In this document: positions 2,708 through 24,097 of the stretch, piece after piece | Layout of the letters: every line of letters begins with the position of its first letter | How positions within the stretch are numbered: position 1 is the stretch's first letter | Source of the DNA: Candidatus Latescibacterota bacterium | GTDB taxonomy: Bacteria > Latescibacterota > UBA2968 > UBA8231 | Length of the DNA: 64,000 nucleotides | Assembly: GCA_965248355.1 (NCBI GenBank) | Contig: OZ252098.1 | Coordinates: forward strand, 1,952,001 to 2,016,000 | Reading direction: 5' to 3' | Program-made: the position numbers and the translations under genes | The notes under the pieces: generated by a model | The model's database searches: none | Told to the model about the DNA's origin: nothing | What the model saw: only the letters and a program-made list of their open reading frames with translations

Positions 2708-4600
2708 ATGCATCTCAGACGTATAGGCATCGCGGGCTCGGCGACGCTCCTGCTGCTCGCAGGAACCGCGAGTGCCCAGTTCCTGCACGCCGGCAACCCC
2801 GACGTCACGTCCCTTTCGGACATGACCAGCGGAGGCCCGCCGACCGTGTTGAAGATCGAAGGTTTGTCGAGCTTCCCCGACTATGCCTTCGACGGCTCCG
2901 ACCTCGATGTCAACTTCACCCTCGAAGGCAGCGGAGCCACCGTCTGGCTCTTCGTCTATACCTCCGGCCAGAACCCGCCTCTGACCATCGAGGGAGAGGG
3001 TGATCCTCCTTACAAGGATCCCGTGCGCAACCAGCCCGGCTGGCACGTGTACGAAGGCGTCGACTACCTCGTCTACAAGTCCGCCGGCGAGCGCATGGAC
3101 GAGGGCGAGAACACCATTACCTGGAACGGCCGCGACAACGCCGGCAACGTCGTCTCCGCCGGCGCCTACAGCCTGCACCTGGCCGCCTTCGACGACGAGG
3201 CCTTCCCCCACCTCGTGGCCGGCTCCGTCTTCCGCAAGCTCGGGCCGCCCGGGCGCCCTTACTGGGATCTCGGCCGGGAGCAGATCTTCGACTTCCGCTT
3301 CGTCAACGACATGAACAACGACTGGGTCGAGAACTTCGAGGGCTTCGACACGATGGATCTGACCGCCGTCACCGACGCCGGCGGCAGCACGCCGAACTCG
3401 GCTGTGTTCCTCAATGACGACTTCACCGAGGCCCTCGCCATCGGCCAGAGCAACTTCCTCGAGCGCCTCACCCTCGACTGGGACGCCAACCGCGTCTCCA
3501 CCGTCGAGGACTGGGGCGAGGACTACGGCGGCGTCAACGGCGTCATCAACGTCGAGGACCTCGGCGCCAGCGCCGGCCAACGGATGATCGCCACCAATCC
3601 CGACAAGACCATCGCCTATCTCGCGGCGGGCGTGACCGGTACGGTGGCGCAGATCGCTTCCTACTCCATCGAGACCGGTGAGAAGCTTGCCAGCTGGGAC
3701 ATGACCGATCTCTTCCTCTACGACAACAAGGGGGCCGACCGGGTCAGCGCGCCCATGGAGTTTGCCCAGTTCTACGACGGCGCTCCGGATCCCTGGGGGA
3801 TCACCACGACATCTCACCACTCCTCCGTGATCGCGCGCTTCGACTACGACGGCAACCTCAAGTGGGCCAACCGCAACGGTGACGGCTTCGGCGATACCCA
3901 GGCCTACAACAGCGCCGACGGCACCTTCGGGGACCTGGTCTACGGACATACCGAGGCGCCCAACTTCAAGTACTCCCTGTTCTCGGCCCCGGACGGATGG
4001 GTCTCGGTCTGCGAGAACGGCCGCGACAACACCAGCTTCGGCGCCATGCTCGGTCAGGACGGTTCCGGCCTGTTCAAGTTCGAGCCCAAGAACACGCCCC
4101 TCACCTGGTCGCAGTACGTCTGCATCGTCGACGGGGACACCGAGTGGGACGGTCTGCACATGCAGATCGGCGGCTTCGGCGACGCGATCCCGTCCAACGA
4201 CTGGGTCTCGAACGACGTCACCGTCTCGCCGACCCATCCCCTCGCCCACTATCCGTACGACCAGAAGAAAGTAAGTCTGGGGATGCCCACGGCCGTTGCC
4301 GAGGTGGGAGGGCAGGTGCCCGGTGGCTACGAGGTCAGCGACGCCTACCCCAACCCCTTCAACCCGGAGACCACGGTTCGCTTCTCCCTGCCCTGGGAGG
4401 TGGATGTACGGGTCACGGTCTACAACGAGCAGGGCCAGAAGGTGGCCACCTTGGCCGATGAGCGCCTGGGTCCGGGCAACTTCGACATCACCTGGGACGG
4501 CACCGATGACAGTGGGGCCGCCGTCGCCTCCGGTGTTTATCTGTATCGGATCGAGGCCCCCGATCTGCGTCTGAACAAGAAGGTCACCTTCCTCAAGTAG
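2708..4600 (+). CDS. Secreted protein with two FlgD-Ig-like domains and a T9SS type-A-like C-terminal domain
   Basis: GGAGA RBS before ATG 2708; signal peptide ending ASA-Q; internal ITWNGRDNAGNVVSAGAY; C-terminal AYPNPFNPETTVRFSLP...WDGTDDSGAAVASGVYLYRI...KKVTFLK. Confidence 0.8.
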   Translation: MHLRRIGIAGSATLLLLAGTASAQFLHAGNPDVTSLSDMTSGGPPTVLKIEGLSSFPDYAFDGSDLDVNFTLEGSGATVWLFVYTSGQNPPLTIEGEGDPPYKDPVRNQPGWHVYEGVDYLVYKSAGERMDEGENTITWNGRDNAGNVVSAGAYSLHLAAFDDEAFPHLVAGSVFRKLGPPGRPYWDLGREQIFDFRFVNDMNNDWVENFEGFDTMDLTAVTDAGGSTPNSAVFLNDDFTEALAIGQSNFLERLTLDWDANRVSTVEDWGEDYGGVNGVINVEDLGASAGQRMIATNPDKTIAYLAAGVTGTVAQIASYSIETGEKLASWDMTDLFLYDNKGADRVSAPMEFAQFYDGAPDPWGITTTSHHSSVIARFDYDGNLKWANRNGDGFGDTQAYNSADGTFGDLVYGHTEAPNFKYSLFSAPDGWVSVCENGRDNTSFGAMLGQDGSGLFKFEPKNTPLTWSQYVCIVDGDTEWDGLHMQIGGFGDAIPSNDWVSNDVTVSPTHPLAHYPYDQKKVSLGMPTAVAEVGGQVPGGYEVSDAYPNPFNPETTVRFSLPWEVDVRVTVYNEQGQKVATLADERLGPGNFDITWDGTDDSGAAVASGVYLYRIEAPDLRLNKKVTFLK

Positions 4601-4764: not shown

Positions 4765-6903
4765 GTGAAGATTGCCAGACACCCCGGCTGGGCGCGACCC
4801 CTGGCTGTCGCGGGACTCTTCCTGTGTTGTGGCGGTCTGTCCGCCCAGGACCTGTCCAGCGTCGGGATCTCCACCTGGCCCTCCACGACTCGCTATCTCG
4901 GCTTCCCCGAGTTCGCAGCCGGTCAGGACGGCCAGATCCGGATCACCGCCGGCGGGCCCTACACCCTCTACCTCAACGGCGATCTCGTGGGCAGTGACGC
5001 GGATCCCTCCACCGTGGAGATCTGGCCGGACCTCGCCTTCAAGAAGAAGGAGAACCAGGTAGCCGTGGTGGTCGACCACGACGGCACCCGGAGCCCGTAC
5101 GGCGCCTACCTCGTGATCGACGGCGAGGAAGAGCAGTTCATCAGCTCTCCCACGGACCGCTCCATGCCCTGGTTCTGGTCCGGCGACCCCCTGCCCAACA
5201 AGGAGGGCGGCTGGACCAAGCTGAAGCTGAGCAAGCTCGACGAGCACGAGGAGGACGGGCGGCTCATCACCTGGCAGGCGGCGCAGCAGGGAACCCTGGA
5301 ACCACGGGACTTCGTGGAGTTCGAGGACCTGGACCTGACCCGGGCCGGCAGCGTGGCCGGCTTCCCCGGAGGCCTGTCCGGTCAGGAGCAGGGGCTGCAG
5401 TTGCGCAGCCTGGTGGGCCAGAACATGGCCCTCAACTCCCGCACCTCCGACCCGAATCTCGTCGATGGCGACATCACCAAGGGCGTCGCCTTCCGCAAGG
5501 GCGCCGCATCCTTGGGCCAGGGGGTGGGCACCGACCTCGGCCGGCTCCTGCTCCTCGAGCGGGTGCGCGTCATCACCGAGCCGCCCGGCCGCAACGACAC
5601 CTACGAAGACCTCGCCATCAGGGGCTACAGCGTCCTGATCAGCCAGAACGGCATCAGCTACCGCGAGGCGGGGGCGCGCAATCAGATCAGCACCTACCGG
5701 GAGAGCGACGTCGTCTTCCCGCCGACTCCCGCCCGCCACGTGAGCCTGAGGATCACCGAGTTCTCCTCCCGGGACGCCAATCCAAGGATCGGGGAGCTGG
5801 AGGTCTTCGCCCAGGGGCGGGACGACGAGGGCCGATACCGCTCCCCGCCGCTGGATCTGAGCTCCTCCGAGGTCAAGAACTTCGAGCGCGCCATCCGCTA
5901 TGGAGAGGTTCCCGCCAACACGGAGATGGAGCTTCGCTTTCGTAGCGGCGAGGACGGGGAGAGCTGGAGCGAGTGGTCGTCCTGGGACTCGCAGTCCGAG
6001 GTCGGACTGACCGTGCCCGAGCCGCGGAACTATCTCCAGTTCGAGGCGCGCATGCTGAGCCGGATTCTCGACGCCACCCCTCGGCTCGACAGCCTGGTGG
6101 TCTGGTTCGAGGAAGGCCCCTTTCCGGCCTCTCGTGCTTCCGGCTCCATCTCTCCGGCTCGTGCCTCCATCGGCGTCGATACGCTGTTCACCTATACGCT
6201 GCAACTGGAGATGCAGGACACCGACACGGGTGTGGGACGGCTGGCCATCCTGACCTCCTGGCCGGCCCAACTCGATGTCGGCGCCGTGCAGGGTCTGGGA
6301 GAGGCGGCCATCGCCTCCAGCTACGCCACGGCCGACTCCCTCGTGCTGATCTTCGATCCGCCCATCACCTCGGCCACCGGAACGACGGAGGTGGTCATCC
6401 CCTTCACCACGCGGCTGCTCTCCGCCAGCCACGACTTCCAGGGGTTGCTCTTCGCTCCCGGGAGTGCGGCCTCCCTCCAGGTCGAGAGGCGGGAGGGAAC
6501 CGATCCACAGACCGAGCTCCCGTACACCTCCATCACCGAGGCGGCGGACTTCAGCATTCCCATCCTCGACCACGTGCGAGCCCAACCCGGGGTCTTCACC
6601 CCCAACGGAGACGGCGCCAACGACTTCGCGGTGCTGGCCTTCACCCTCGGGCGCGTCTCCGGGTCTTCGGTCCACTTCGAGATCTATGATGTCGGCGGAA
6701 GGTTGGTGCGCAGCCTGCCGCCGAGTCTTCTCGACCCCGGAAGCTACTCCCCCATCGGGGGCCGGGAAGAGGACCTGCCCGGACGATGGGACGGCCTGGA
6801 TGACGAGGGAAGGCTGGTGCCGCCGGGGCTCTACCTGTATCGAATCGTCGTCGATCTGGAACCGGACGAGGTGGCCACGGGCGTGGTCGGACTCGCCTAC
6901 TAG
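4765..6903 (+). CDS. Secreted multidomain protein (discoidin/F5-8C-like domain; C-terminal FTPNGDG type-B-like CTD/FlgD-Ig)
   Basis: GAGG RBS and GTG start; signal peptide; NLVDGD...DLGRLLLLERVRV...ARHVSLRI...IGELEVF is discoidin-like; C-terminal VFTPNGDGAND...IYDVGGRLVR...WDGLDDEGRLVPPGLYLYRI. Confidence 0.72.
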   Translation: MKIARHPGWARPLAVAGLFLCCGGLSAQDLSSVGISTWPSTTRYLGFPEFAAGQDGQIRITAGGPYTLYLNGDLVGSDADPSTVEIWPDLAFKKKENQVAVVVDHDGTRSPYGAYLVIDGEEEQFISSPTDRSMPWFWSGDPLPNKEGGWTKLKLSKLDEHEEDGRLITWQAAQQGTLEPRDFVEFEDLDLTRAGSVAGFPGGLSGQEQGLQLRSLVGQNMALNSRTSDPNLVDGDITKGVAFRKGAASLGQGVGTDLGRLLLLERVRVITEPPGRNDTYEDLAIRGYSVLISQNGISYREAGARNQISTYRESDVVFPPTPARHVSLRITEFSSRDANPRIGELEVFAQGRDDEGRYRSPPLDLSSSEVKNFERAIRYGEVPANTEMELRFRSGEDGESWSEWSSWDSQSEVGLTVPEPRNYLQFEARMLSRILDATPRLDSLVVWFEEGPFPASRASGSISPARASIGVDTLFTYTLQLEMQDTDTGVGRLAILTSWPAQLDVGAVQGLGEAAIASSYATADSLVLIFDPPITSATGTTEVVIPFTTRLLSASHDFQGLLFAPGSAASLQVERREGTDPQTELPYTSITEAADFSIPILDHVRAQPGVFTPNGDGANDFAVLAFTLGRVSGSSVHFEIYDVGGRLVRSLPPSLLDPGSYSPIGGREEDLPGRWDGLDDEGRLVPPGLYLYRIVVDLEPDEVATGVVGLAY

Positions 6904-6914
6904 GCTCGCCTGCT

Positions 6915-9641
6915 ATGAGGAAGAGGGTCCCCCTAGACCAATCCATGCGCGCTCCCGTCGCTCTCACCCTCCTGGCCCTGTTGGGATCCACTCCGGACCT
7001 GGCGGAAGGGCAGTTCCTGTCCCGGGACTTCCGCGGGCTCTGGGCCAACCAGATCTTCGAGAACTACGGGGCCGCGGGCTACCGGGACTACGACCTGGAA
7101 GAGGAGAACCGGCGCTTCGACCTCTTCGGCGATCTCCTCATCGACGGCGTGGACATCATCGAGTACAGCGAGATCCGGCGGGACGCCCCCGGCATCCGGG
7201 GCAGCTTCGAGACACGCAACGCCCGCTACGAGCGCTTCTTCAGGAAGCTTGTCATCGCCAACGAGGGGTTCGGCAACTGGTCCACCCGCCTGATCATAGG
7301 GGATCACATCCGGACCTTCTTCACCCCCATGACGCTGAACCTGCCCAACTACAACGGGATCCGCTGGGACGGCGCCTCCCGGAAGAGCCGCTTCAGCCTC
7401 ATCGCCAGCCACCTGCGGGATCCGGTGGTGCTGGGCGGGGGCCTCGCCGTGGACCAGAACATCGAGGAGCGCCGGATCTGGGGGGGCAGCCTCTTCGGCG
7501 TTCATTGGGAGAGCCAGATCGGCGGCCTGCTCAAGCTCGGAACCACCTACGTCAACCTGCATCGCTTCGACTCCGAGGCCACTGCCAAGGTCAACAGCCT
7601 CAAAGGGACGATACCCGGGGTCATGCAGGGGGGGCTTCGCAAGGTCTTCGTGTTCTTCTCCGACGACTCCCCCCACGACGCCTTCGCCGGCGCCGCGGTT
7701 CACGAGTTGACCCTGACCGTGGACGGCACACCGGTGATGCCCTTGCGGGTGGGTCGGATCGACGGCCTCATCAGCAAAATCCCGGTCACGCCCGATCCGA
7801 CCAGCACCGTCCTGCTCGAGCCCCACGAGGTCGACTACCTCCGCCGCAACCGCTCCTGGCTGCGCGCCGTGGTCGAGGCCAGCCGGGACCGGTTCTTCGC
7901 CTCCCTGCTGGACGACATCACCACCGACATCACCGCCGAGGCCCTCACCTCCCGCGGCGCGCCCCTTCGCGCCGACGGGAGCGACGTCATCTACTTCGAG
8001 TACGAGGTCCCCGACACGGTGAGCGGTATCGACTTCAGCGCTGTCCTCGCCGACGACTACAGCGTGGACGTCGTGGGGGCCATGCTGGTGCCGATCCTGG
8101 CTCCGGGCGAGGACGACTTCTATTACGACTGGTACAACGCCCGCCGCGCCAGGGGACGGCCCGGCCACGGGTCGAACCGGCACCGGGTCGACTTCCACTA
8201 CGGGTTCCCCACCGGGCTGACCATCGCCGGGCTCGACTGGGACCTCAAGGCACTGGGGTTCCACCTCCAGGGGGAGTTCGCTCGCAGCCTGCGCTTCCTC
8301 CAGGTTCCCAACCGCAAGGCCAAGCGTCACCGCCGGGAGAGCTCGACCTTCTACTTCCGCCTCACCCGCCCCGTGCGCGAGCGGACCGAGCTCGGTTTCG
8401 AGTACTTCGACGTGCCCGACGACTACACCACCGAGTTCCCCCTCTTCCTGACCCAGCGCACCACGAAATCGGTCGGCGGCAGGCTCTACACGCCCTTCGC
8501 CCTCGTGGAGGACAACGACGATCTCGACTTCTGGCCGGACCGGGTGGAGCACAACGATCCGCTGGCGCCGTACGCGGACCCCCTGGGCAGTCAGTTCGGC
8601 CATCCCGGAAAGGGGGTCTACCCCGGCCTGGATCCGGACGACGACGGGGTCTTGGACTACAACCTGGACCTCGAGTTCGGCTCCGATTCCAGCCAGCCCT
8701 TCCTCGGCTACTACTCGGAGCCGTCCGGCCTGGTCTACGGCGACGACTTCGACAACAACGGGGTCGTCGACTACCGCGAGAACGACAACCTGCCGGACTA
8801 TGCCTATCCCCTCGACCACCGCGGCTTCCACGCCTTCGGTACCGTGGGGTTGAGCGCCCGGACCCAGATGCGGGCGGGGTGGTACAGGGTACGCCAGCCG
8901 GTCGTGGGAGGCCGCAACAACACCCAGTACGTCGAGGGGCAGTACCGACGGGACTGGGCGGGCCTGGGGTACCTGCGGTTGAACCACCGTATCAAGTGGA
9001 TGGAGGACGACATCCGCAACACGGTCTTCCGGTTCGGCAGCGTCGGCTCGCTCAATCCGGACCGCCTGGGGAGCCGGGACACGGTCAGCAACTTCACCTT
9101 CTTCGAGACCGGCCTGATGGCCGTGCCCGACGTCAACCTCCGCAACATCATCACCTTCGGCTTCTCGGAGCTGGCCGGGCGTCCCGTGGCCGATCCCTTC
9201 CTGACCATGCCGGGCCGATACACCGGTATCTCGGTGATGAACAAGATCGACTACACTTGGAGGCGCGGCCGGCTGACCGTTCTGCCCCAGTTCAAGCACA
9301 TCTACTACCGCAGCACCTCACCGGAGCGCCACCTGCCCTCTTCGCAGAGCCGCCAGGTCATACCGATTCTGCGCGCCGACTACCAGTTGACCCCCAGGAC
9401 CGAGCTCAGGACCGGCATCCAGGGGTTCCCCTTCTGGCGCGAGAAGACCACCTACGCGGTCCGGCCCGAGAGCCAGTACACGCGCCTGACCTACACGGCG
9501 ATGATCCAGAACCGGAGCAACTACCTGGGCTACGACTTGGTGCTGCTCATGGGCACGTACCGCAGCGAGGTTGACTACTCCGGATCCGACCGGCCGGGCA
9601 ACGGTTTCCTGCAGTATTTCTTCAGGATCTTCATCGGCTGA
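6915..9641 (+). CDS. Uncharacterised large exported protein, putative outer-membrane beta-barrel (paralog 1 of 3)
   Basis: Signal peptide; many alternating hydrophobic/aromatic strands; Asp-rich loop; terminal strand QYFFRIFIG. The start may be the second Met at 6945. Confidence 0.6.
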   Translation: MRKRVPLDQSMRAPVALTLLALLGSTPDLAEGQFLSRDFRGLWANQIFENYGAAGYRDYDLEEENRRFDLFGDLLIDGVDIIEYSEIRRDAPGIRGSFETRNARYERFFRKLVIANEGFGNWSTRLIIGDHIRTFFTPMTLNLPNYNGIRWDGASRKSRFSLIASHLRDPVVLGGGLAVDQNIEERRIWGGSLFGVHWESQIGGLLKLGTTYVNLHRFDSEATAKVNSLKGTIPGVMQGGLRKVFVFFSDDSPHDAFAGAAVHELTLTVDGTPVMPLRVGRIDGLISKIPVTPDPTSTVLLEPHEVDYLRRNRSWLRAVVEASRDRFFASLLDDITTDITAEALTSRGAPLRADGSDVIYFEYEVPDTVSGIDFSAVLADDYSVDVVGAMLVPILAPGEDDFYYDWYNARRARGRPGHGSNRHRVDFHYGFPTGLTIAGLDWDLKALGFHLQGEFARSLRFLQVPNRKAKRHRRESSTFYFRLTRPVRERTELGFEYFDVPDDYTTEFPLFLTQRTTKSVGGRLYTPFALVEDNDDLDFWPDRVEHNDPLAPYADPLGSQFGHPGKGVYPGLDPDDDGVLDYNLDLEFGSDSSQPFLGYYSEPSGLVYGDDFDNNGVVDYRENDNLPDYAYPLDHRGFHAFGTVGLSARTQMRAGWYRVRQPVVGGRNNTQYVEGQYRRDWAGLGYLRLNHRIKWMEDDIRNTVFRFGSVGSLNPDRLGSRDTVSNFTFFETGLMAVPDVNLRNIITFGFSELAGRPVADPFLTMPGRYTGISVMNKIDYTWRRGRLTVLPQFKHIYYRSTSPERHLPSSQSRQVIPILRADYQLTPRTELRTGIQGFPFWREKTTYAVRPESQYTRLTYTAMIQNRSNYLGYDLVLLMGTYRSEVDYSGSDRPGNGFLQYFFRIFIG

Positions 9642-9642
9642 C

Positions 9643-12456
9643 ATGGCGCGCCTTCGATATACGGCGGCGGTGGCCGCGGCCTGCTGGCTCATGACCGGGG
9701 GGGCCTCCCCCGGCGAGGCCCAGCTGCTGTTCAAGCCCGGAGAGCCGTACGCCAACTACGCCTACGAGGGCTACCGGAGCTACCAGAACCTGATCTTCGC
9801 CCGTGACCGCCTGCCCGTGTTCGATCCCCTCGGCCAGTTCGTGATGAACGGCACCGAGGTCTTCAAGCTCCAGGAGACCCGGACGCTCGCCCCTGCGCCG
9901 GGCACCCTCATCTCCAAGCCGAGGCTCTACCAGAACTACCTGAACCGCTTGGTGATCGCGGACGACGCCTACGCCGGGGCCACGAGCAAGCTCATCATCG
10001 GCGACCACCTGCGCACCAAGTTCACCTCCCTGACCCTCGACATGGCGGCCATGAACGGACTGCGCTTCGACACCCGCTTCGAGAGCGGCTCCCTGATCCT
10101 GGCCGCCTCCCGGGTGGACCGGCCGATCTTCGAGGCCCTGGGGCAGCAGAACGTCGACCACCGGGTCCACGGCGTGGAGGAACGCTACGAGACGCGGCCC
10201 CGCTGGTCGACCTACCTGCTCGGCGGCGACCTGCGCACCCAGTTGCCGGGGCTGGACATGGGTTTGAGCTGGGTCAACCAGTACCGCACCGACAGCTTCA
10301 AGGAGCTCAACGACAACAGCTTCAAGGGCACCCTCCCGACCACCGGCGCCCCTCCCGAGTGGATCGTGGTGCGCGTCGCCGACCAGGAGCCCGACGACGA
10401 GGTGGGAGTGCGCGTCAAGGTGCCCACCATCACTCTCAACGGCCGCCGGTTGCAGCACCGTCTCGGACCCTATGACAACCTGGACCCGGATGCCCCGACG
10501 CTCACGGTCACCGAGCATTCCGACCGTACCATCATTCCGCCGATCCTCTGGAGGGACGCCCAGGATCCCATCATCGATCACGACCACGTGGCACCCACAC
10601 CCCAGGGTTTCTACGAGACCCGGGGTCCGGGGAGCCTGCTGTTCTGGTTCCGCGTCCCCCACACCTTCGATGGCGCCGGCGAGACCGAGGTGATCAACCA
10701 GGCCTACGTGGACCTGGACGTGGCCGGGGACTACGTGATCGAGTTGTCGGAGATCTTCGACGGCATCTCCAACAACCCGGCGACCTATTTCTACACGGCC
10801 GCCCGGTCGGCGGGCCGACCGGGCAACCTGAGCGACTTCCGGCGCGTACGGGCCCACTACGGCCGCCAGACCGGCCGCACCCTGGCGAGCGCGCATCTGA
10901 ACCTGGACGTCAAGGGGTTCATGCTGCACACGGAGTACGTGCGCAACTTCTCCTTCCGCGCCTATCCGGCCCTCCTGAGCACCGAGCTCGAGCACTTCCA
11001 GGACGAGAGCCAGGCCTGGTTCGCCGTGCTCCGCCGGAATTGGGAGGACTTCTCCGTCGGTGGCGAGCTGTTCGACGTGGACGCGGCCTATTCCACCGTT
11101 CTCGCGGTGCAGGACGACGCCTTCAACACCAGCGCCGGCTTCCCTTCCGCGCCCTTCAACTACCCCCAGCAGATCCACGAGCCGCGGCTGCCGACCAAGA
11201 TCGGCCGGAACATCACCGACCAGACCTACACGCGCGAGTTCGACACCGTCGACGACAACGACGACAAGGACCAGTACCCGGACACCTACTACCTGCGCAA
11301 GACCACGAATCCGGAGACCGGGGGGCGCTTCATCCAGGATCCGGACGGCGTCTTCCCGGGGCTGGACGCCGATCTGAACGGCCGGCCGGACATCAACGAG
11401 AACAGCAACCTGATCCCCGACTACTACGAGCCCTTCCTGCTCTACAAGGTCAATCCGGACGCCTACGAGTGGGGTGAGGACCTCAACAACAACGGCCAGA
11501 TCGACGAGCGCGAGAACGACCTGAAGTCCGACTACCCCTACGATGTCGACCGCCGCGGGTTCCACGGCTTTTCCCGGCTCTTCCACGGCAGGGCGACCTG
11601 GACCGTGGGACATCACAGGTCCTGGGCGCCCTTCGGAGGCGGCAGGGCGGAGGCGACCTACGCCAAGATCGAGTACGAGCGCCGGATCCCCTTTCTCGTG
11701 GATGTCTACGGCGTGGAGCGGCTCAAGCGCGTGCATGACGACATGGCCGACGACATATTCGGCCTGCGGCGAGACCCCATCTACTTCGAGCCGGACGTGA
11801 TCTCCATCGTGCCGCTCACCGAGGAGCAGATCTTCAATCCCCTGGGCGAGGCCGAGCTGCTCAAGGACCCGCTGCAGATGCGCGACAGCTGGGTCAACAC
11901 TCTCTACACGAGGACGCGCTACATCGGCACGTCCAACCTCAATGTCGAGGTCTCGGTCAAGTATGAAACCAACCTCCAGCAGAGTACACCCCTGCAGCCC
12001 GACAACCGCGTCTCCGACCTGGCCACGGTGGTCAAGGCCGACTACACGTGGAATCCCTGGAGCCGCCTCCGTGTCGTTCCCCAGTTCAAGTGGATGCGGC
12101 AGCGCCTGCAGGACGACGAGCAACGGCTCCTGGAGATCGCCGAGGACTACGTCTACCCGATTCTGAGGTTGGAGTACCCCCTCTCCTCCCGCACCGAGGT
12201 CAAGCTCGGGGCCCAGGGCTTTCCCTTCCTCCAGGGCACGTACCGCAACGGAGCGGCCCGGGGGGTGGATTTCGATTCCCAGGTCTACCTGGCGCTGCTG
12301 AGCAATACCTCCACCTACGTGGGCTACCAGATCAACGTCAACCTGGGTTACGAGAAGCGCATCCGGACCTTCCTGGACGAGACCCGCAGCGATCAGGACA
12401 TCGATTTCTCCCGCCTCTTCCTGCGCGTGATCGTCGGCCTGAGGCCGCAATTCTGA
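9643..12456 (+). CDS. Uncharacterised large exported protein, putative outer-membrane beta-barrel (paralog 2 of 3)
   Basis: ATG 1 nt after the upstream stop; signal peptide MARLRYTAAVAAACWLM...GEA-Q; shares ordered motifs with paralogs 1 and 3; ends RLFLRVIVGLRPQF. Confidence 0.6.
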   Translation: MARLRYTAAVAAACWLMTGGASPGEAQLLFKPGEPYANYAYEGYRSYQNLIFARDRLPVFDPLGQFVMNGTEVFKLQETRTLAPAPGTLISKPRLYQNYLNRLVIADDAYAGATSKLIIGDHLRTKFTSLTLDMAAMNGLRFDTRFESGSLILAASRVDRPIFEALGQQNVDHRVHGVEERYETRPRWSTYLLGGDLRTQLPGLDMGLSWVNQYRTDSFKELNDNSFKGTLPTTGAPPEWIVVRVADQEPDDEVGVRVKVPTITLNGRRLQHRLGPYDNLDPDAPTLTVTEHSDRTIIPPILWRDAQDPIIDHDHVAPTPQGFYETRGPGSLLFWFRVPHTFDGAGETEVINQAYVDLDVAGDYVIELSEIFDGISNNPATYFYTAARSAGRPGNLSDFRRVRAHYGRQTGRTLASAHLNLDVKGFMLHTEYVRNFSFRAYPALLSTELEHFQDESQAWFAVLRRNWEDFSVGGELFDVDAAYSTVLAVQDDAFNTSAGFPSAPFNYPQQIHEPRLPTKIGRNITDQTYTREFDTVDDNDDKDQYPDTYYLRKTTNPETGGRFIQDPDGVFPGLDADLNGRPDINENSNLIPDYYEPFLLYKVNPDAYEWGEDLNNNGQIDERENDLKSDYPYDVDRRGFHGFSRLFHGRATWTVGHHRSWAPFGGGRAEATYAKIEYERRIPFLVDVYGVERLKRVHDDMADDIFGLRRDPIYFEPDVISIVPLTEEQIFNPLGEAELLKDPLQMRDSWVNTLYTRTRYIGTSNLNVEVSVKYETNLQQSTPLQPDNRVSDLATVVKADYTWNPWSRLRVVPQFKWMRQRLQDDEQRLLEIAEDYVYPILRLEYPLSSRTEVKLGAQGFPFLQGTYRNGAARGVDFDSQVYLALLSNTSTYVGYQINVNLGYEKRIRTFLDETRSDQDIDFSRLFLRVIVGLRPQF

Positions 12457-12460
12457 CCCC

Positions 12461-15400
12461 ATGAGAGCCGGAATCACAAAGAGCGCCGACCGCCGGAGAG
12501 CGGGCCTCCAGGGTAGCCGGCATCACTCCGCCCTGAGCAGCCTGTGGTCGTGGCCTCTCTTCGGCGTGCTGCTGCTGCTCGCGCCGGCCACCGCCGATGA
12601 GGAGAAGGAGGACCGGCCCGAGCACCCGGCCCTGGGACCGGTGCGCCTGATCCCGGATCAGCCCTTCATCGGCCGCATCGGGCGGCAGACCTACCAGAAC
12701 TACGGGTTCGAGGACTACTCCCGGCGTCCCGTGGCCACGAGCAACCTGAGCAACCGCTACAACTATCTGGGCGACCCTCTGGTCTACGGCACCCAGTCGA
12801 TCCGCTGGGTCGAGTCACGAGGTCTGGGCACCTCCCGCGGCTACAGCTCGGTCAGCGAAGGCGGAGCCCACGGCACCGGCCGGGGCGGCACCGACTACGC
12901 GCCGCCCGGCGGCAGCTTCGCCAATCTCTTCAACTACGTCATGGTCGGCTCCGACGGCACCGATACCTGGCAGGCCCGGGCGATCTACGCCAACGAGCTG
13001 CGCTCGAAGTTCACGCCCCTGACCTTCAAGATGTCCAACGTCGACGGATTGCGCCTCGACGTGGGCACCGAGCACGACAGGTTCTCCGCCCTGTTCTCCA
13101 ATCTGACGCCCACGGGCGGCGGCTTCATCGTGCCCACCACCATGCTCGGCGCCCACTACGAGCGCCGGGTGGGCTTCCTCAACTTCGGCGCCAGCTTCGT
13201 CAACGCTCATCAGTACGAGCACCAGATGTCGAACCGCCACCAGTCCTTCAAGGGATCGGTGGGCAACATCCAGCGTCCGACAGCGATGGTGGCCATCCGC
13301 ATCTCCGACGGCTCGCCTCAGGACGGCAGGGACGGGCCGGTGCTCCACGGCGTGAAGGTCTACATCAACGGGGAGCTGCGTCCGGAGGCGGATCCCTTCC
13401 TGATCCGTCTCAATCGACGCGGCGACGCCCGGACCACCTACGTGGCCGGCCTGCTCGACGAAGGCAAGGACAACGAACGCCGCAGGCCCCTGGAGACCGA
13501 CTACCAGACCGTCAACAAGGGGGCGGTCTTCAACAGTTTCGCCGTGTACATCAACTACGCCGCCTTCGACACCGACGCCTACTACAGGGGCTACGACTTC
13601 CCCTTCTTCATCGACCATCTCTACTACCGGGACTTCGCCCGCTTCGGCCCGGACCACGAGTACGAGGAGGGCGTCACCGTCCACAACCAGTTCGCCCACG
13701 AGCTCTCCGAGCCCGACGGCGCCTTCGCCCTGGCCACGGAGGCCGACCTGCCCCAGGCCTTCGACGGCGAGGAATACGCCGTGGTCTACGTCGATCTGGA
13801 GCCCTTCCAGGAGCAGATCAACTCGGTCGACATCGACTTGGAGCTGTCCAGGGACTACCACGTGGAGGTCTCGGAGATCGATCTGGCCGGCAAGCCCCAT
13901 GACCCGCGCGCGGTGAATCCGCGGGACCGCTACAACTACGCGGGTTTCTTCCGCACCGTGGCCTCGGCGCCCGGCAACTCGCGCAGCGACAACATCGAGA
14001 GGGTGCGCGTGAAGGTGGGCGCCTCCACCGGACTGAGCCTCTACAGCGCCAACGTCTACGGGGTGTTCAAGGGCTTCGAGATCGACGGGGAGTTCAGCCG
14101 CAGCCACAGCTACTACCAGTACGCGAGCGGCATCCCCGGACCCCGGGTATATCCTACCGGCGGCGGGCAGACGGTGAACGCCCTGCTCCGGGAGGAGAAC
14201 CCGGGTGCGCGCTCCAGCATCGACGACGATGCCTATTACCTGACGGTCAAGCGCGACTTCCGGAGCTTCGGCGTGGGCGCGGAAGTCTTCTCCATGGGAG
14301 CCCACTTCAACACCGAGCTGCGCTCCCACATCGGACGTAGCGAGGTCAACTTCGGCAACCCGGTGGTCTACAACAACACCTACCTGCACCGGCTGGTGGA
14401 GGACAACGACGACAACGACCGCTACCCGGACACGTGGTACACCAACCGCCCCTTCATCTGGAACGGGCAGTCGGACCTCGACGGCGTCTTCCCGGGCCTG
14501 GACGAGGACAACGACGGCGTGCCGGACACCAACCGGGACTTCGACGCCACGCCCGACTATCTCGAGCCCTTCCTGACCTACGACGTGGATCCGCAGATCT
14601 TCGACTACGGTCTCGATCTCAACCACAACGACTACATCGACGAGCGCGAGAACGACCTGCAGCCGGACCTGCCCTACGACCCGGGCCTGCGGGGACGCCA
14701 CGTCTACGGGACCTTCAAGCCGATCCGGGGCGCACGGATGACCCTGGGGCTGCTTGACGCCGAGCAGATCGCCGCCGGCGATCCGAACGAGTTCCTCTAC
14801 GCCCGCCTTGGTTACGAGCGCCGGATCCCCAGCCTGGGGCGGTTCCAGGGCTCCCTGTTCACCGAGCGAGTGAGGGACGGCGTCGAGGATCCGCTGAGCG
14901 TGTACAGCGATGAGGTCCTGACAGCGGCCGAGCAGCTCCGGCGGGAGTTCGGCGGGTTTCAGCGCAACATCCGCATCTCCCCCTTCCTGGAGGTGCCGCG
15001 GGAGGATCCCCTGCTGTTCAAGAACAGCACCTTCAGCCGCATCTTCGTCGACGCCCGCTGGACGACCCTGCCCGGCCTCAACATCCACAACAAGGTCAAG
15101 TACGAGATCAACCAGCAGCTCGACGGCGAGCTCTACGACGGCACCCTCCAGGAGGGCCGGACCCTGTCGCGGTGGGCCATGGTGCACCGGCTGGACTACC
15201 TGTGGCCCATCCAGCCCAAGCTCAGCCTGTTCTCCGGGCTCAAGTACCGCTTTCTGCGGGAGTGGCAGACGGGGGATGTGACCACCCAGCACGAGCGGCA
15301 CATCATCCCCATCCTCAAGCTCAACTACGACCTGACCCTGAGGACCCGCCTCCAGTTCGGTGTGGAAGGCCTGGGCACCCTCCTGCCCTACTCGGTCGTC

Positions 15401-15616
15401 GATCTGGCGCAGCCGGAGAACGACTTCGAGCAGTACGACTACGTGCTCATGCTGACGAACAACTCCAAGTACTTCGGCTACATCCTCTCCACCAATGCCG
15501 GCCTCAGCCGCAGGCACAGGGTCTTCGACGACCCGGCCGTGGCGCAGGTCAAGGACGAGAAATTCACGGCGGTCTTCATCAACGTGATCCTCGGCTTCGA
15601 GGAGGAGACCTACTAG
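12461..15616 (+). CDS. Uncharacterised large exported protein, putative outer-membrane beta-barrel (paralog 3 of 3)
   Basis: Signal peptide ending LLLLAPATA-D; same motif series (LRSKFTPLTF, VEDNDDNDRYPD, GVFPGLD, IDEREND, NNSKYFGY); ends AVFINVILGFEEETY. Confidence 0.6.
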   Translation: MRAGITKSADRRRAGLQGSRHHSALSSLWSWPLFGVLLLLAPATADEEKEDRPEHPALGPVRLIPDQPFIGRIGRQTYQNYGFEDYSRRPVATSNLSNRYNYLGDPLVYGTQSIRWVESRGLGTSRGYSSVSEGGAHGTGRGGTDYAPPGGSFANLFNYVMVGSDGTDTWQARAIYANELRSKFTPLTFKMSNVDGLRLDVGTEHDRFSALFSNLTPTGGGFIVPTTMLGAHYERRVGFLNFGASFVNAHQYEHQMSNRHQSFKGSVGNIQRPTAMVAIRISDGSPQDGRDGPVLHGVKVYINGELRPEADPFLIRLNRRGDARTTYVAGLLDEGKDNERRRPLETDYQTVNKGAVFNSFAVYINYAAFDTDAYYRGYDFPFFIDHLYYRDFARFGPDHEYEEGVTVHNQFAHELSEPDGAFALATEADLPQAFDGEEYAVVYVDLEPFQEQINSVDIDLELSRDYHVEVSEIDLAGKPHDPRAVNPRDRYNYAGFFRTVASAPGNSRSDNIERVRVKVGASTGLSLYSANVYGVFKGFEIDGEFSRSHSYYQYASGIPGPRVYPTGGGQTVNALLREENPGARSSIDDDAYYLTVKRDFRSFGVGAEVFSMGAHFNTELRSHIGRSEVNFGNPVVYNNTYLHRLVEDNDDNDRYPDTWYTNRPFIWNGQSDLDGVFPGLDEDNDGVPDTNRDFDATPDYLEPFLTYDVDPQIFDYGLDLNHNDYIDERENDLQPDLPYDPGLRGRHVYGTFKPIRGARMTLGLLDAEQIAAGDPNEFLYARLGYERRIPSLGRFQGSLFTERVRDGVEDPLSVYSDEVLTAAEQLRREFGGFQRNIRISPFLEVPREDPLLFKNSTFSRIFVDARWTTLPGLNIHNKVKYEINQQLDGELYDGTLQEGRTLSRWAMVHRLDYLWPIQPKLSLFSGLKYRFLREWQTGDVTTQHERHIIPILKLNYDLTLRTRLQFGVEGLGTLLPYSVVDLAQPENDFEQYDYVLMLTNNSKYFGYILSTNAGLSRRHRVFDDPAVAQVKDEKFTAVFINVILGFEEETY

Positions 15617-15618
15617 GG

Positions 15619-18600
15619 ATGGGCTTGACCCTGTTCCTCACCGTGCTGGCCGCCACGGGCACCTATCTGGCGACGCGCACGCCCACCGAAGGCGAGCTGG
15701 TCAGCTCCTTTCAGGAGGCCCAGCGGTTCTACGCCGAGGGCGCCTACGACCAGGCCATCTCCGAGTACGCGAATGTCTCCCGCGTGCGGAGCCGGGTGCT
15801 GGCGGTCAACCAGGTCCAGGTGGTCGTGGGCGAGGAGAGCTTTCCCCTCCAGGAAGCCGCCGCCTATCAGATCGGGAACGCCTATTCGAAGCTCTACGAG
15901 GAGTACGACCGGTTCGCGGAGGAATCGAGGAACGCCCTTCGAAGGAGCGAGTACCGGGCGCAGGCGGACACCTCCTTCGCCCGGGCCATCGGCGCCTTCC
16001 GCCAGGTCATCGCCTCCGCCGCCAACGAGATCCTGAAGGTCCAGGCCCACGGTCGCCTCATCGACCTCTATTTCTCGGCCGAGGCCTACCCGGACGTCAT
16101 CATCGCCTCTCGCGAGATGATCGCCGCCTATCCGGACAACCCTCACGTCGTCGTCGCCTACTACAACACCGGATGGGCCTACTACGAGACCAGGAGATTC
16201 GCCCGCGCCATCGAGTCCTTCCAGGCCCTGTTGTCCCGGTTCTCCACGGGCTACCGCGCCGACCGCAGCTTGTTCCAGATCGGCGAGTGCCACCGGGAAC
16301 GGGGGGAGTACGAGGAGGCCATCGAGTCCTACCGCCGGCTCGTGGAACGCCAGCGCATCGGCGAGCTGACGGACGAAGAGCTGCTGCAGATGAAGCGGGA
16401 GAAACTGGCGGGGCTCGTGGACGAGACGGCCCTGGAGCTGGCGGCCAAGGCGGAGATCCGGGTTGGTACCTGCTTCACCAGCCTGGGGCGTTTCGACGAG
16501 GGTCTCGCGGCCTACCAGCGGGTGATCTCCCTCTTCAGCACCGAGCGCCAGCTGGTGGAGGAAGCCTTCCTGCGCCTGGCGGACCTCCACCAGGCCCGGG
16601 GAGACGAGGCCGCGGCCCTGCGCACCTACCGCGAGGCGATCGACGAATCGCAGGACCGCACCCTCAGGGCGAGGATTCAGTACGCCCTGGCCGAGAGGCT
16701 GTTCTCCCAGGGCGCCTACGAGCGGGCGATCCAGGAGTACCGGATCTACCTGCAGGGCTATGGCGACATCGCCCTGAGCGCCGGCTTCAGCGAAGGGCGG
16801 GTACGCTACCGTGTGGGCAGCGGCTACCAGCAGCTGGCCCAGCCCCACCTGCAGGCGGGGGACGGCATCGCCGCGGCCTCCTGGCTGAACCTCGCCATCG
16901 CCCAGTACGACACCCTGTGCGCCGATCCGAACTCCCCCTACTTCCTGGACTCCCAGTTCAACCGCGCCGTCGCCTTCCAGTCCCTGGGCACCCCGGGGGC
17001 CATGGCCCGGGCCCGCGGCGAGTACGAGACCATCATCGATGGGGCGGGGGACGAGCTCTACCTCCAGAGATCCCTGGGCCAGCTCGCGGAGCTGCTCTAT
17101 GACCTCGGTGAATACGAGGGGGCGGTGGAGCGCAGCCGACAGTTGCTGAGGGAGTTCCCCGGGACCGACTACGCCGACGAGGCGTACATGCGCATCGGCC
17201 TGGGCCACCAGGCCTCGGGTGAACTGGAGCCGGCGGCCGAGGCCTTCCTCCAGGTCGCCCCGGACTCCCCCTTCTTCGTCCGCTCCCGGACGGGCGCCGG
17301 CCACGTGCTGCTCTCCGAGCGGCGCTACGCCGACGCCATCCCCGTCCTGCAGGCAGGACTCGCGGAGGCCGAGGCCCCGGCCCAGCAGGGCAGCCTGCAC
17401 TACCTGCTCGGACAGGCCTACAACGGCGAGGGGGAGTACGCGCAAGCCGTCGTCCAGTTCACCGAGGCCCTGGCCCGGCCCATGGGGCCCCGCCTGGTGG
17501 AGGCCCTCCGTCTCAATCGCGGCAGCGCGGCCCTGGCCGCCGGGGATCTCGCCCAGGGAGAGGAGGACCTGCTGTGGGTGGTGTCGAACGTGACCGATCC
17601 CGAAAGGGTGCGCTACGCCCAGGACGCCCTCGCCTTCTCCTACGTAAGGCGGGACCGGGGAGCTGACGCGGCCCGGATCCTCGAGGAAATGGTGATCGCC
17701 GCCCCCACGGTCGAGCAACGCGCCGACCTGCTCAATCGCATGCTGGATCTCTACTACGAGGAGGAGAGCTACTCCCAGACCATCGAGGCCGCCCGCCGCC
17801 TCCTCGCCCTGGACTTCGACGACAAAGCCGTCTCACGGGGAGGGTACGGCACCAAGGAGAAGGCCTACTTCATCCTTGGCGACGCCCTGATGCGGCTCGA
17901 CCGGGGCTCGGAGGCGGTGCGCACCTTCCGCGAGGCCCTCCGGGCCTATCCGGGCTCCCCCTTCGCCCTGGACATCCGGCTGACTCTGGGCGCCTTCCAC
18001 TTCGCCGAGGGAGAGCTGGACCAGGCCAGGAGCCTCTTCCAGGACCTCTCCGGCGTCGACCTGACCGAGGAGCAGGCCCTTCTCGTCTCCTTCTACCTGG
18101 CCAACACCCATTACAGCCTGAGGGAGTTCGAGGAGGCCCGCATCCTCTTCCAGGGACTCCTCGACGAGAATCCGGGTGTCCGGGAACTGCCGGACATCCT
18201 CTTCGGGGTCGCGGAGAGCAACTATCAGCTCGGCGCCTTCGACCGGGCCATCGGCCACTACCGGCGGCTCATCGAGGAGTTCCCCGGGGAGACGGCGGCC
18301 GACGACTCGCAGTACAACATGGCCTGGTGCCTGATCGAGCTGGAAAGACAAGAGGAGGCCATGGCCGCCTTCCGCCAGCTTCTCGACCGCTATCCCCGGA
18401 GCGAGTACGCCGCCTCCGCCCAGTTCACCTTCGGAGATCACGCCTACAACCTGGGCCGCTACCAGGATGCCATGGAGGCTTACCTGCTCGTTCAGCAACG
18501 GTACCCCGACGCGGAGATCACGGCGGAGGTGCCGAGGCTCGTGGCCGAGCTCAAGGAGGCCATCGCCTACGAGCGCTACGAGCAGGGCATCGCCCTGATG

Positions 18601-18867
18601 GACTCGGCCGAGGCTGTCGGGCCGAGCGATTACTACCGCCAGGCGATCGAGGTGTTCGAGGACGTCATCGCCAAGTACCCGGAGACGGAGAGCGAGATCG
18701 GAGCCCTGAGCAACATGGGCGTCTGCCTGGAGGAACTGGGCAGGTGGCAGGACGCCGTCGGGGTTTACGACCGCGTCATCGGCCTTTTCGAAGAGAAGCG
18801 AGCCACCCGGGAGGCCTTCCAGTTCGCCAAGGCCCACCGGGACTGGATTGTGAGCGCCCGGCTGTGA
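15619..18867 (+). CDS. Large tetratricopeptide-repeat (TPR) protein, ~1082 aa
   Basis: ATG 2 nt after the upstream stop; short hydrophobic N-terminus; many TPR units (AYYNTGWAYY, SLFQIGECH, QYNMAWCL, AQFTFGDHAY, LIEEFPG). Confidence 0.85.
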   Translation: MGLTLFLTVLAATGTYLATRTPTEGELVSSFQEAQRFYAEGAYDQAISEYANVSRVRSRVLAVNQVQVVVGEESFPLQEAAAYQIGNAYSKLYEEYDRFAEESRNALRRSEYRAQADTSFARAIGAFRQVIASAANEILKVQAHGRLIDLYFSAEAYPDVIIASREMIAAYPDNPHVVVAYYNTGWAYYETRRFARAIESFQALLSRFSTGYRADRSLFQIGECHRERGEYEEAIESYRRLVERQRIGELTDEELLQMKREKLAGLVDETALELAAKAEIRVGTCFTSLGRFDEGLAAYQRVISLFSTERQLVEEAFLRLADLHQARGDEAAALRTYREAIDESQDRTLRARIQYALAERLFSQGAYERAIQEYRIYLQGYGDIALSAGFSEGRVRYRVGSGYQQLAQPHLQAGDGIAAASWLNLAIAQYDTLCADPNSPYFLDSQFNRAVAFQSLGTPGAMARARGEYETIIDGAGDELYLQRSLGQLAELLYDLGEYEGAVERSRQLLREFPGTDYADEAYMRIGLGHQASGELEPAAEAFLQVAPDSPFFVRSRTGAGHVLLSERRYADAIPVLQAGLAEAEAPAQQGSLHYLLGQAYNGEGEYAQAVVQFTEALARPMGPRLVEALRLNRGSAALAAGDLAQGEEDLLWVVSNVTDPERVRYAQDALAFSYVRRDRGADAARILEEMVIAAPTVEQRADLLNRMLDLYYEEESYSQTIEAARRLLALDFDDKAVSRGGYGTKEKAYFILGDALMRLDRGSEAVRTFREALRAYPGSPFALDIRLTLGAFHFAEGELDQARSLFQDLSGVDLTEEQALLVSFYLANTHYSLREFEEARILFQGLLDENPGVRELPDILFGVAESNYQLGAFDRAIGHYRRLIEEFPGETAADDSQYNMAWCLIELERQEEAMAAFRQLLDRYPRSEYAASAQFTFGDHAYNLGRYQDAMEAYLLVQQRYPDAEITAEVPRLVAELKEAIAYERYEQGIALMDSAEAVGPSDYYRQAIEVFEDVIAKYPETESEIGALSNMGVCLEELGRWQDAVGVYDRVIGLFEEKRATREAFQFAKAHRDWIVSARL

Positions 18868-18891: not shown

Positions 18892-19452
18892 ATGGTTTCG
18901 ATAGATTACCGTTATCTCTTTCTCCTGGCCCTCACCGGGACGCTGCTGACCGCAGGCGGCCCGGGATTGGCTCAGGAGCCGGAGGAGAGGTTCCAGGTAC
19001 GCGAGCAATCCGCCTCCAGGAAGCAGGCCGTGGCCCTCGCCGTGGCCTTTCCCGGACTCGGTCACCTGGCCACCGGACACCGGGAAAAGGGGACCGCCCT
19101 CGTGACCGCCGAGATACTCGGCCTCGTGATATGGCTGACGTCGCACGCCGACTACAAGACCCAGTCCGAGCAGGTCGACGTGGAGAAGATCCGCTACGCG
19201 TCGATTCGAGAGGGCGGAACCCACGATGAGGCGGAGGAGAGCTGGCGGCGTCTGAACAGCCTGAGGGAGGATGCCGACGGCTCGCACCTGCGGCGGCGCC
19301 TCTTCGGGGTCCTCGCCATCGGCGTGTACGGGTACAATCTCCTCGATGCCCTGCTCCTGGGGGGGCTGGAGCCGCCCGGCGGCGGACGCGTCGGTCTGGT
19401 GCCCTCGGCGACTCCGGACCAAGCGGGGCTGGCCCTTGTGGCCCGCTTCTGA
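18892..19452 (+). CDS. Hypothetical exported/membrane protein (DUF5683-like)
   Basis: GAGGA RBS; signal peptide; AVAFPGLGHL motif, hydrophobic helices, YNLLDAL, C-terminal strand ending in F. Confidence 0.55.
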   Translation: MVSIDYRYLFLLALTGTLLTAGGPGLAQEPEERFQVREQSASRKQAVALAVAFPGLGHLATGHREKGTALVTAEILGLVIWLTSHADYKTQSEQVDVEKIRYASIREGGTHDEAEESWRRLNSLREDADGSHLRRRLFGVLAIGVYGYNLLDALLLGGLEPPGGGRVGLVPSATPDQAGLALVARF

Positions 19453-23665: not shown

Positions 23666-23680
23666 GTCGGCGCGCAGACC

Positions 23681-24094: not shown

Positions 24095-24097
24095 AAA

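Follow-up and report, generated by a model that had tools for sequence, protein, structure and literature searches.

To our knowledge, active import across the outer membrane has so far been known through TonB-dependent transporters of 22 strands. The Ton system with SusC/SusD utilisomes combines ExbB-ExbD-TonB with these 22-strand transporters and surface lids. In the Agl-Glt machinery of Myxococcus, GltA and GltB form a tight core to which GltH is an accessory (cited passages of PMC11761067), and the pore of SlpA contains insertions that bind metal, the protein being perhaps a scaffold and not a pore at all (cited passages of PMC9388160). The section of PMC12204202 on vWA clusters names no outer-membrane barrel family, and that paper mentions neither "Latescibacter" nor "DUF4159".

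Here we analyse a window of 64,000 nucleotides from a Candidatus Latescibacterota bacterium (contig OZ252098.1), in which three consecutive genes for large predicted barrels, A, B and C, lie between genes for secreted proteins and genes for an ExbB/ExbD-type motor. The relevant features, all on the forward strand, are as follows.

2648-4600, +, tailed secreted protein with a type A-like type IX secretion system (T9SS)/FlgD tail ending ...TFLK; likely start 2708
4765-6903, +, lectin-like secreted protein with an F5/8 discoidin domain and a type B-like T9SS tail (FTPNGDG...AY)
6915-9641, +, barrel A, 908 aa including a signal peptide; fold predicted through homology with the B model
9643-12456, +, barrel B, 937 aa, predicted outer-membrane beta-barrel of about 23 strands
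10318-10863, +, all-beta domain inserted into B (mature residues 200-381), a predicted beta-sandwich variable among A, B and C
11356-11547, +, acidic DxDxDG-type segment of B (mature residues 546-609), predicted lumen plug
12461-15616, +, barrel C, at most 1051 aa, whose insert is the longest of the three; true start may be later
15619-18867, +, TPR protein, 1,082 aa, with an N-terminal hydrophobic anchor or signal
18892-19452, +, DUF5683-like protein
19478-19864, +, small lipoprotein
19914-21146, +, DUF4159 protein (single transmembrane segment, linker, DUF4159)
21161-21937, +, conserved lipoprotein of no family
21921-22844, +, exported protein, 307 aa
22922-23665, +, ExbB/TolQ (Pfam above cut-off)
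23681-24094 and 24098-24508, +, two ExbD/TolR proteins (Pfam above cut-off)

The three barrel genes are co-oriented and tightly coupled, with gaps of 1 base between A and B, 4 between B and C, and 2 between C and the TPR gene; for A, the gene finder prefers the ATG at 6945. The original prediction had described them as tandem, divergent paralogs of an unrecognised family that share a series of motifs. All 21 of the 21 quoted motifs were recovered exactly and in the order given, and pairwise BLASTP identities are 25-31%, far above chance (A-B, 28% over 977 columns, E 2.6e-77; B-C, 31% over 647 columns, E 3.6e-63; A-C, 25% over 606 columns, E 3.1e-32). The family is likewise unrecognised in Pfam, NCBIfam and PDB: the Pfam search returned no family for A and B and a chance-level match for C (E 0.06), the NCBIfam search of 25 paralogs from the genome gave no family apart from a single match at E 0.019 in 2 of the 25, and the PDB held no sequence relatives (best E 0.08). 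The ESM Atlas yielded unnamed clusters only, plus a lead-level DUF6029 barrel (0.89-0.90), and no description of the family was found in the literature searched, subscription journals aside.

DSSP assigns 22-23 long strands to the AlphaFold model of B (pLDDT 85.9, pTM 0.86), the covariation scores of 19 of 21 pairs of neighbouring strands exceed the best of 190 non-adjacent pairs, and every top Foldseek match of the model is an outer-membrane barrel. B is thus predicted to be a beta-barrel of roughly 23 strands, neither a soluble fold nor a full-length match to a known family was found, and the suggestion of beta-barrels with large inserted domains is backed by all three lines of evidence. Modelled alone, the B insert reaches a pLDDT of 84.8; it is predicted to face the long-loop, outer side, its identity between classes is 15%, and Foldseek found nothing for it at E<=0.001, the best match being a DUF4425 beta protein (TM 0.28). 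Residues 509-609 of B form the most conserved region, at 41% between classes. They include the acidic segment, a feature that the original prediction did not mention, with the consensus VxDNDD...PGLD...DY.EPFL...G.D.N.NG..D..END...DYPY. Eight couplings of z >5.5 tie this segment to barrel strands 10-19 (for example 590-669, z 13.9, and 574-832, z 11.2); it is predicted to plug the lumen and likely binds metal. The conserved N-terminal NY-x-x-x-x-Y peptide is unfolded in the B model. The last strand shows no covariation with any N-terminal strand (score <=1.6), though 304 rows span both ends. A scan of outward-facing conservation for an oligomer face gave no clear patch.

Membership of the TonB-dependent transporters, SlpA, ushers or LptD was considered and rejected, the structural scores being generic (TM <=0.26 of the query; tied VIA Z scores of 11.6-14.5 with rmsd 6.5-14). 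Against TonB-dependent transporters the B model gives TM 0.13-0.20, with BtuB (Z 11.6, rmsd 11.2) tied with unrelated barrels. Homotrimeric SlpA is the closest structural and weak HMM neighbour: it is the best Foldseek match (E 6e-8), and homologs of the family match SlpA_C (PF21620) at 20-33 bits against a cut-off of 35, over about 90 of 656 positions and at up to E 3.7e-8, while A, B and C themselves have no PF21620 match. Neither an SLH domain in A, B and C nor, for a coiled-coil stalk, a long helix in the B model was detected. None of the 25 barrels matched the GltA/B/H families in NCBIfam.

Gene order and positional orthology are directly observed within and beyond this genome. It holds five A-B-C operons, in whose tree A, B and C each form one clade (support 100/100/97), and the same clades return in a tree of 51 rows from several genomes (support 99/99/100), so that position equals identity and the three are old copies with fixed places. 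The units duplicated, five times, were entire triplets and not individual A or B genes. We further surveyed 71 loci from other genomes with 10-kb flanks, 39 of them with B: 37 of 38 A genes have B as their successor, 37 of 39 B genes have A as their predecessor, and no more than 1-2 of the 39 loci show the two separated or with their order swapped. The notion that homologues always occur as triplets holds only in part, A-B-C being contiguous in 27 of the 39 B loci; elsewhere a gene is inserted before C (6/39), C lies further down (3/39) or is missing within the stretch (1/39), or contig ends cut the locus (2/39). One locus, L042, has A-B without C, C-only loci make up 21 of the 71, and C also multiplies alone in other genomes. 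A separate S clade of single genes or pairs accounts for 6 of the 71 loci. Two further loci, L053 and L062, carry one unsplit barrel beside the same cargo and TPR genes; these barrels branch outside A+B+C (support 93), the position to be expected had a homo-oligomer turned into a hetero-oligomer. Across the phylum, the family occurs in 91 of 151 sampled genomes and is absent from 60; a single genome may have as many as about 30 copies that score. The original prediction had left the choice between a hetero-oligomer and substrate-specific channels. Strict positional orthology together with adjacency favours the hetero-oligomer for A and B, and given the solo C genes and the S clade, found singly or in pairs, substrate-specific variants are plausible in the case of C, not of the whole trio.

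Co-occurrence with secreted cargo is also directly observed. Proteins of the 2648-4600 type, with an Ig-like N-terminus and a hypervariable middle that is probably a beta-propeller, are present once in each of the five operons and in 26 of the 39 B loci; the window copy matches Pfam FlgD_ig (E 2e-19) and TIGR04183 above cut-off. The lectin-like type lies directly upstream of 34 of 38 A genes, with 3 more at contig edges. Type B-like tails cluster with the family, 27 of 30 lying within 12 kb of a family gene as against 8 of 102 type A-like tails. The type B model TIGR04131 matches 19 of 23 tails at E<=0.01 (best 2.3e-7), with 12 of the 23 also matching the type A model, and the window tail of 4765-6903 scores 20.7 bits, below the cut-off of 35; CHU_C is above cut-off in 5 of 20 cargo paralogs and in the KSB1 copy. 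The genome encodes SprA above cut-off and two PorP-like proteins, which match a Pfam-confirmed PorP at E about 1e-21 and were both missed by direct Pfam searches. In L053, L042 and L051 (3 of 71 loci), the cargo gene is separated from the first barrel gene by one for PorP/SprF. The idea that the giant barrels substitute for PorP/SprF was dropped in view of these genes: the barrels coexist with PorP, and the family HMM showed no similarity to PorP/PorV sequences (E>0.06), nor did the barrels match Pfam PF11751, the family of these shuttles of about 300 aa, so that they are not the shuttle and at most the destination. No link between Latescibacterota and type IX secretion was found in the literature searched.

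On the motor side, the TPR gene is present in 30 of the 39 B loci and the DUF4159 gene in 31. The DUF4159 protein is a candidate TonB-like force transducer: an N-terminal hydrophobic segment occurs in 31 of 31 locus copies and 5 of 5 operon copies, and the motor-binding SxxxH motif in 2 of the 5 operon copies here and 7 of 31 elsewhere, the window copy being without it. In two sister operons the conserved lipoprotein is fused to an AgmX/TonB-C domain; the gliding_GltG match on this fusion reaches 35 bits against a cut-off of 650. The motor genes at 22922-24508 reach neither the ExbB nor the TolQ equivalog cut-off of NCBIfam. ExbB is found in three of the five operons here, two having no adjacent copy, and in 11 of the 39 B loci, a count limited by the 10-kb flanks. 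Of 13 clusters, 8 have a DUF6785 gene no more than 8 kb away, where 1.8 would be expected, in a test seeded from cluster neighbours; linkage of DUF4838 was not significant (1/13), and glycoside hydrolase or lyase families had no match at E<=1e-5 among 35 chosen flanking genes. In the literature searched, no paper on DUF6785/DUF6784 was found and, on DUF4159, only a Pfam release paper.

The predicted barrel fold and the repeated operon with sugar-binding-type proteins and proton-motor genes make a three-part, energy-driven gate likely, one by which these uncultured bacteria would capture and take up large nutrients. The explanation we prefer, with a confidence that stops a little short of even, is that A, B and C are plugged outer-membrane barrels, likely one hetero-oligomer and likely the gate of a proton-driven capture-and-import machine, in which A and B are likely the fixed core and C the exchangeable subunit. 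Oligomer, energy coupling and substrate are what we infer here, as follows. Judging from the SprA, PorV and PorP genes and the tails, type IX secretion would export the two tailed proteins, which would attach to the outer face and serve as binding "lids". The conserved acidic segment, predicted to sit in the lumen and probably metal-bound, would keep each lumen shut. The pore may open when ExbB-ExbD-ExbD pulls on the NY-x-x-x-x-Y peptide or the plug, the force being passed on by the membrane-anchored DUF4159 protein and by the TPR protein as a scaffold. Specificity might be set by the variable beta-sandwich inserts, the lids and the solo C copies, with glycans or glycoconjugates, tentatively, as the probable substrates. 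The discoidin domains on the cargo, the co-occurrence of TPR and DUF4159 proteins, the DUF6785 linkage and the prediction of Latescibacteria as polysaccharide degraders (cited passages of PMC4454575) count for import. Against it count the 35 scanned flanking genes without glycoside hydrolase or lyase, unlike a classic utilisation locus; the plug, which is the most conserved rather than the most variable region and would suit a structural function no less than a gate; the scarcity of SxxxH and of ExbB in B loci; the 21 ordinary TonB-plug matches already in the genome; type B-like tails below cut-off; and a C that is not obligatory. A more specific version, possible yet doubtful, is an energised transporter class in which a hetero-trimer of SlpA-like giant barrels with a metal-bound mid-chain plug as its gate would be opened by ExbBD via TPR and DUF4159 proteins, not TonB, receive T9SS-delivered lids and swap C for specificity, as the Latescibacterota counterpart of SusCD. 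In that version, the absent coupling between first and last strands could point to a lateral gate or to a seam where the three lumens meet.

By analogy with Agl-Glt, the barrels could instead form a force-transmitting adhesion or gliding platform that holds a T9SS-delivered lectin adhesin, with ExbB-ExbD-ExbD pulling via the TPR protein and the pore passing nothing. The parts lists are alike in outline (three barrels, a large TPR protein, one TolQ-like and two TolR-like genes), the GltA-GltB core with accessory GltH mirrors the fixed A-B and loose C (cited passages of PMC11761067), an AgmX/GltG-like C-terminal domain is present in a sister operon (NF033768, E 2.6e-14), type B cargo of Flavobacterium includes moving adhesins (cited passages of PMC12618676), and GldL/M/N were not matched in the genome, in a search run without a true positive control. 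We nevertheless regard this as rather unlikely: the PDB and NCBIfam searches revealed no relationship in sequence to Glt barrels, the AgmX-like domain sits on a lipoprotein and not on an inner-membrane protein, barrel size and the conserved lumen plug exceed an anchor's needs, and at least five parallel operons with solo C arrays are more readily explained by a range of specificities than by a single machine for motility.

The barrels might also serve structure or anchoring, as SlpA/OmpM does, or be terminal T9SS receptors: permanently plugged, they would display cargo and tie the outer membrane inward while the motor serves assembly or cargo hand-over. This reading likewise strikes us as improbable. 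The TM values of the B model to SlpA are 0.20-0.26, the strands number about 23 and not 30, SLH domain and stalk were not detected, and absence from 60 of 151 phylum genomes is unlike a basic envelope tether; in its favour are the Foldseek ranking and sub-cut-off SlpA_C matches, the metal-binding pore insertions of the possibly scaffolding SlpA (PMC9388160, as cited) and the presence of only two close PorP copies for about 29 type B-like cargos here, which makes hand-over to another anchor needed or likely. Three independent channels, monomers or homo-oligomers standing side by side with different substrates and no mixed complex, would accommodate the single S-type and solo C genes, the A-B locus without C and the strongly different inserts. 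Such an arrangement is quite improbable given how rarely A and B are apart or reversed, the duplication of entire triplets, and the one cargo pair and one TPR protein that accompany all three barrels.

If the capture-and-import reading is true, a second, unrelated barrel architecture operates on the same kind of motor, and the locus reveals the mode of feeding or attachment of a widespread uncultured group; DUF4159 gains a role, and type IX secretion biology reaches beyond Bacteroidota. A, B and C also offer a clear example of one ancestral gene that split to fill fixed positions.

Compared with the Ton/Sus systems, the locus shares a large barrel with a predicted plug, ExbB/ExbD genes, putative surface sugar-binding partners and many paralogous loci per genome. 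It differs in that plug, a mid-chain acidic segment in place of the N-terminal PF07715 domain (of the 21 matches in the genome, not one falls on a family gene, and the control was positive in 3 known genomes), in proposed lids that carry T9SS tails and are not lipoproteins, in a DUF4159 and a TPR protein in place of classical TonB, and in having three different barrels. With Agl-Glt it has in common a tight pair plus a looser third barrel, a large TPR scaffold, one TolQ-like and two TolR-like subunits, a putative surface ligand-binding protein and, in some operons, an AgmX-like domain (PMC11761067, same passages), whereas the barrels here are sequence-unrelated and of about 900-1050 aa, the cargo is T9SS-tailed and several operons run in parallel. 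SlpA/OmpM of Deinococcus-Thermus resembles the barrels in large size and in having acidic insertions in the lumen and an oligomeric state, both predicted for the barrels here (PMC9388160, same passages), and is set apart by 30 strands, a homo- rather than a hetero-set, and the motor-linked operon found here. An FTPNGDG-tailed cargo directly upstream of an outer-membrane barrel gene recalls type B cargo with PorP/SprF (PMC12618676, same passages). Finally, the motor-side gene set matches the clusters of TPR, tolQ, paired tolR and vWA genes, including a transducer built as transmembrane segment, linker and globular domain, that domain being DUF4159 here and vWA in the clusters described in the cited section of PMC12204202.

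The three adjacent reading frames of the original prediction (A, B and C) are real, with spacings of 1, 4 and 2 bases along A, B, C and the TPR gene; the operon around them, in window coordinates, reads:

2648-4600, ...LK cargo, a secreted protein with a type A-like tail
4765-6903, ...AY cargo, a secreted protein with a type B-like tail
6915-9641, + strand, paralog A
9643-12456, + strand, paralog B
12461-15616, + strand, paralog C
15619-18867, TPR protein
19914-21146, DUF4159 protein
22922-24508, ExbB-ExbD-ExbD

All of the motifs quoted for the paralogs are present (21/21), and their claimed homology is borne out, with identities of 25-31% and E-values as low as 1e-77. Read from the sequence, the start of each protein looks like a signal peptide. 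No family covering A, B or C emerged from Pfam, NCBIfam or PDB searches; the named homologs are hypothetical proteins, mostly from Candidatus Latescibacterota, the phylum from which the window probably derives, and searches of the literature covered turned up no description of the barrel family.

The AlphaFold model of mature B, built from 84 sequences (pLDDT 85.9, pTM 0.86), shows 22-23 long strands by count, and the full barrel may have 22 or 24; one side bears short turns, the opposite side long loops. A and C are probably barrels by homology to modelled B. Covariation over 388 rows (effective 281), which uses the strand limits of the model and not its coordinates, recovers the meander, with 19 of the 21 adjacent strand pairs exceeding the best of 190 non-adjacent pairs; no coupling was found between the last strand and any N-terminal strand. 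Residues 546-609 of B covary with strands 10-19; among their partners, the strongest two (669, 832) and a weaker pair (615, 628) fall at polar positions, 792 and 742 do not, and the coupling pattern overall fits a plug in the predicted lumen. The most conserved region, residues 509-609 (41% identity between classes), contains DxDxDG-like loops, which we take to be of the calcium-binding type; elsewhere between-class identity is 15% in the inserted domain and 7-13% in the other long loops. Folded alone, the insert is an all-beta domain with no significant Foldseek match, and all matches of the whole B model to known structures are barrels, SlpA first, at TM-scores of at most 0.26.

A tree built from 25 full-length paralogs sets each class, A, B, C or S (a further clade, of single or paired genes), apart by one branch (support 100/100/97/100), and a quick-search tree of 51 rows, comprising the paralogs and 29 rows from other genomes with three S rows omitted, keeps these branches at 99/99/100/100. 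Among the best 71 of 502 candidate loci for a B-type query, a sample with counts biased to B, A is followed by B in 37/38, stands directly before B in 37/39, and is itself immediately preceded by type B-like cargo in 34/38. Within the same best 71 of 502, the 39 B loci comprise 27 with contiguous A-B-C (one with C cut at a contig end), six ordered A-B-cargo-C, three with C after the TPR block, two edge-cut and one without C, and 21 of the 71 loci carry C only, some as arrays or beside ...LK cargo. Four solo C genes in the tree cluster with operon C genes. Loci L053 (KSB1) and L062 each hold a single barrel with nearly equal scores against A and against B, and the cargo and TPR genes on either side of it are those of the A-B-C operons; the barrel's position outside A+B+C (support 93, root assumed on S) is suggestive.

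The genome contains 28 gene models of the family, which make up five A-B-C operons together with one additional C, nine S genes of full length and fragments of two broken genes. A profile search retrieved 1,274 representatives when clustered at 50%, of which 434 reach E<=1e-30, with matches in 18/18 genomes of the same family of bacteria, 0/12 genomes from two other families of the class, and 91/151 genomes (10/14 families) phylum-wide; a KSB1 genome also carries a homolog. Positions marked G000:C1 are genome coordinates. L001 (G000:C1:147499-150294) is a solo C on the opposite strand to an operon C 10 kb off, of which it is a near copy (branch lengths about 0.05). At L012 (G000:C1:2469301-2473318), a 423-aa transposase-looking gene interrupts the family gene of an operon reduced to cargo, barrel, TPR, lipoprotein and a DUF4159 fragment, and at L004 (G000:C1:359546-362532) an S-type barrel gene lies as pieces of 443 and 594+ aa in two separate frames, through either a frameshift or an assembly error. 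Some genomes have C-type tandem arrays without A or B (L084, L079, L082, L083, L090). S-type barrels (L004, L011, L013, L014, L015, L016) usually have as neighbours a ~550-aa PpiC/SurA-like gene, which may encode a dedicated folding helper, along with two or three ...AY cargos.

All five operons start with ...LK cargo, ...AY cargo, A, B and C; TPR and DUF4159 genes occur in 5/5 and ExbB in 3/5. The DUF4159 proteins have a TM-linker-domain layout, with an SxxxH motif in a minority, and the 1,082-aa TPR protein carries a highly conserved non-TPR insert, KREKLAGLVDETALELAAKAE (window 16360-16480, residues about 250-285), a candidate binding site. Similar TPR-motor-transducer clusters with vWA domains, of unknown function, are described in PMC12204202. 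In two sister operons, an AgmX/TonB-C-like domain is fused to the conserved operon lipoprotein (G000:C1:168311-169510, 513005-514192). Near 13 clusters, DUF6785 (8/13), FG-GAP (7/13) and CBM9-like (7/13) genes are enriched, the seeds having been picked from cluster neighbours; DUF6785 also occurs in 11/71 loci of other genomes (best 71 of 502). Of 35 chosen flanking genes, none matched a glycoside hydrolase or lyase family. One of the genome's 26 DUF6785/DUF6784-family copies (G000:C1:1949552-1951429) lies just before the window, 3.3 kb upstream of the operon. Two CBM9-like proteins stand one on each side of the operon (window 1593-2507, 27246-28055). Three more window genes have no clear family: one at 19-1689 is transglutaminase-like, and two at 24691-27259 are exported or unknown.

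The genome carries SprA (G000:C1:426938-433123) and PorV, the latter adjoining a possible PorU gene of 1,239 aa (the pair at G000:C1:4989446-4994324). This type IX system is accompanied by about 100 type A-like tails, yet GldL, GldM and GldN gave no match in a genome search lacking a true positive control. Family genes lie within 12 kb of 27/30 ...AY tails (one of the three distant matches is weak) and 8/102 ...LK tails. The ...AY tails show a sub-cut-off resemblance to T9SS type B and, in part, a resemblance to type A; most ...AY-tailed proteins have discoidin domains. In Flavobacterium, according to PMC12618676, type B cargo pairs with a PorP/SprF shuttle encoded downstream. The giant barrels are ruled out as that shuttle because PorP-like genes coexist with them, lying between cargo and barrel in 3/71 loci (best 71 of 502) and, in this genome, as two copies away from the barrel operon. 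These two share N- and C-termini: one (G000:C1:233334-234200) is part of a lipoprotein-PorP-TPR-ExbB-ExbD-DUF4159-like block with S genes nearby, and the other (G000:C1:909376-910242) stands alone. About ten further PorV/PorP-like genes are present.

From gene content and predicted fold, we tentatively favour, at slightly under an even chance, a hetero-oligomeric gate in which A, B and C would assemble together and ExbBD would drive capture and import. This reading is preferred because the predicted lumen is large and plugged, the partner proteins are lectin-like, many parallel operons have variable outer domains, and C is exchangeable. A traction platform resembling Agl-Glt (PMC11761067) is a less likely alternative. 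A scaffold role for the barrels, SlpA-like or T9SS-terminal (by analogy with PMC9388160), is about as unlikely, and independent channels are slightly less likely still.

The new elements are the lumen-plug evidence, PorP-like genes distinct from the barrels, single-barrel loci, and an A-B core with a loose C. We place the barrel system among motor-energised outer-membrane systems because it is proposed to work like Ton/Sus or Agl-Glt, yet it does not qualify as a member of either, nor of SlpA or PorP, and there is a real chance that it represents a new class of such systems.
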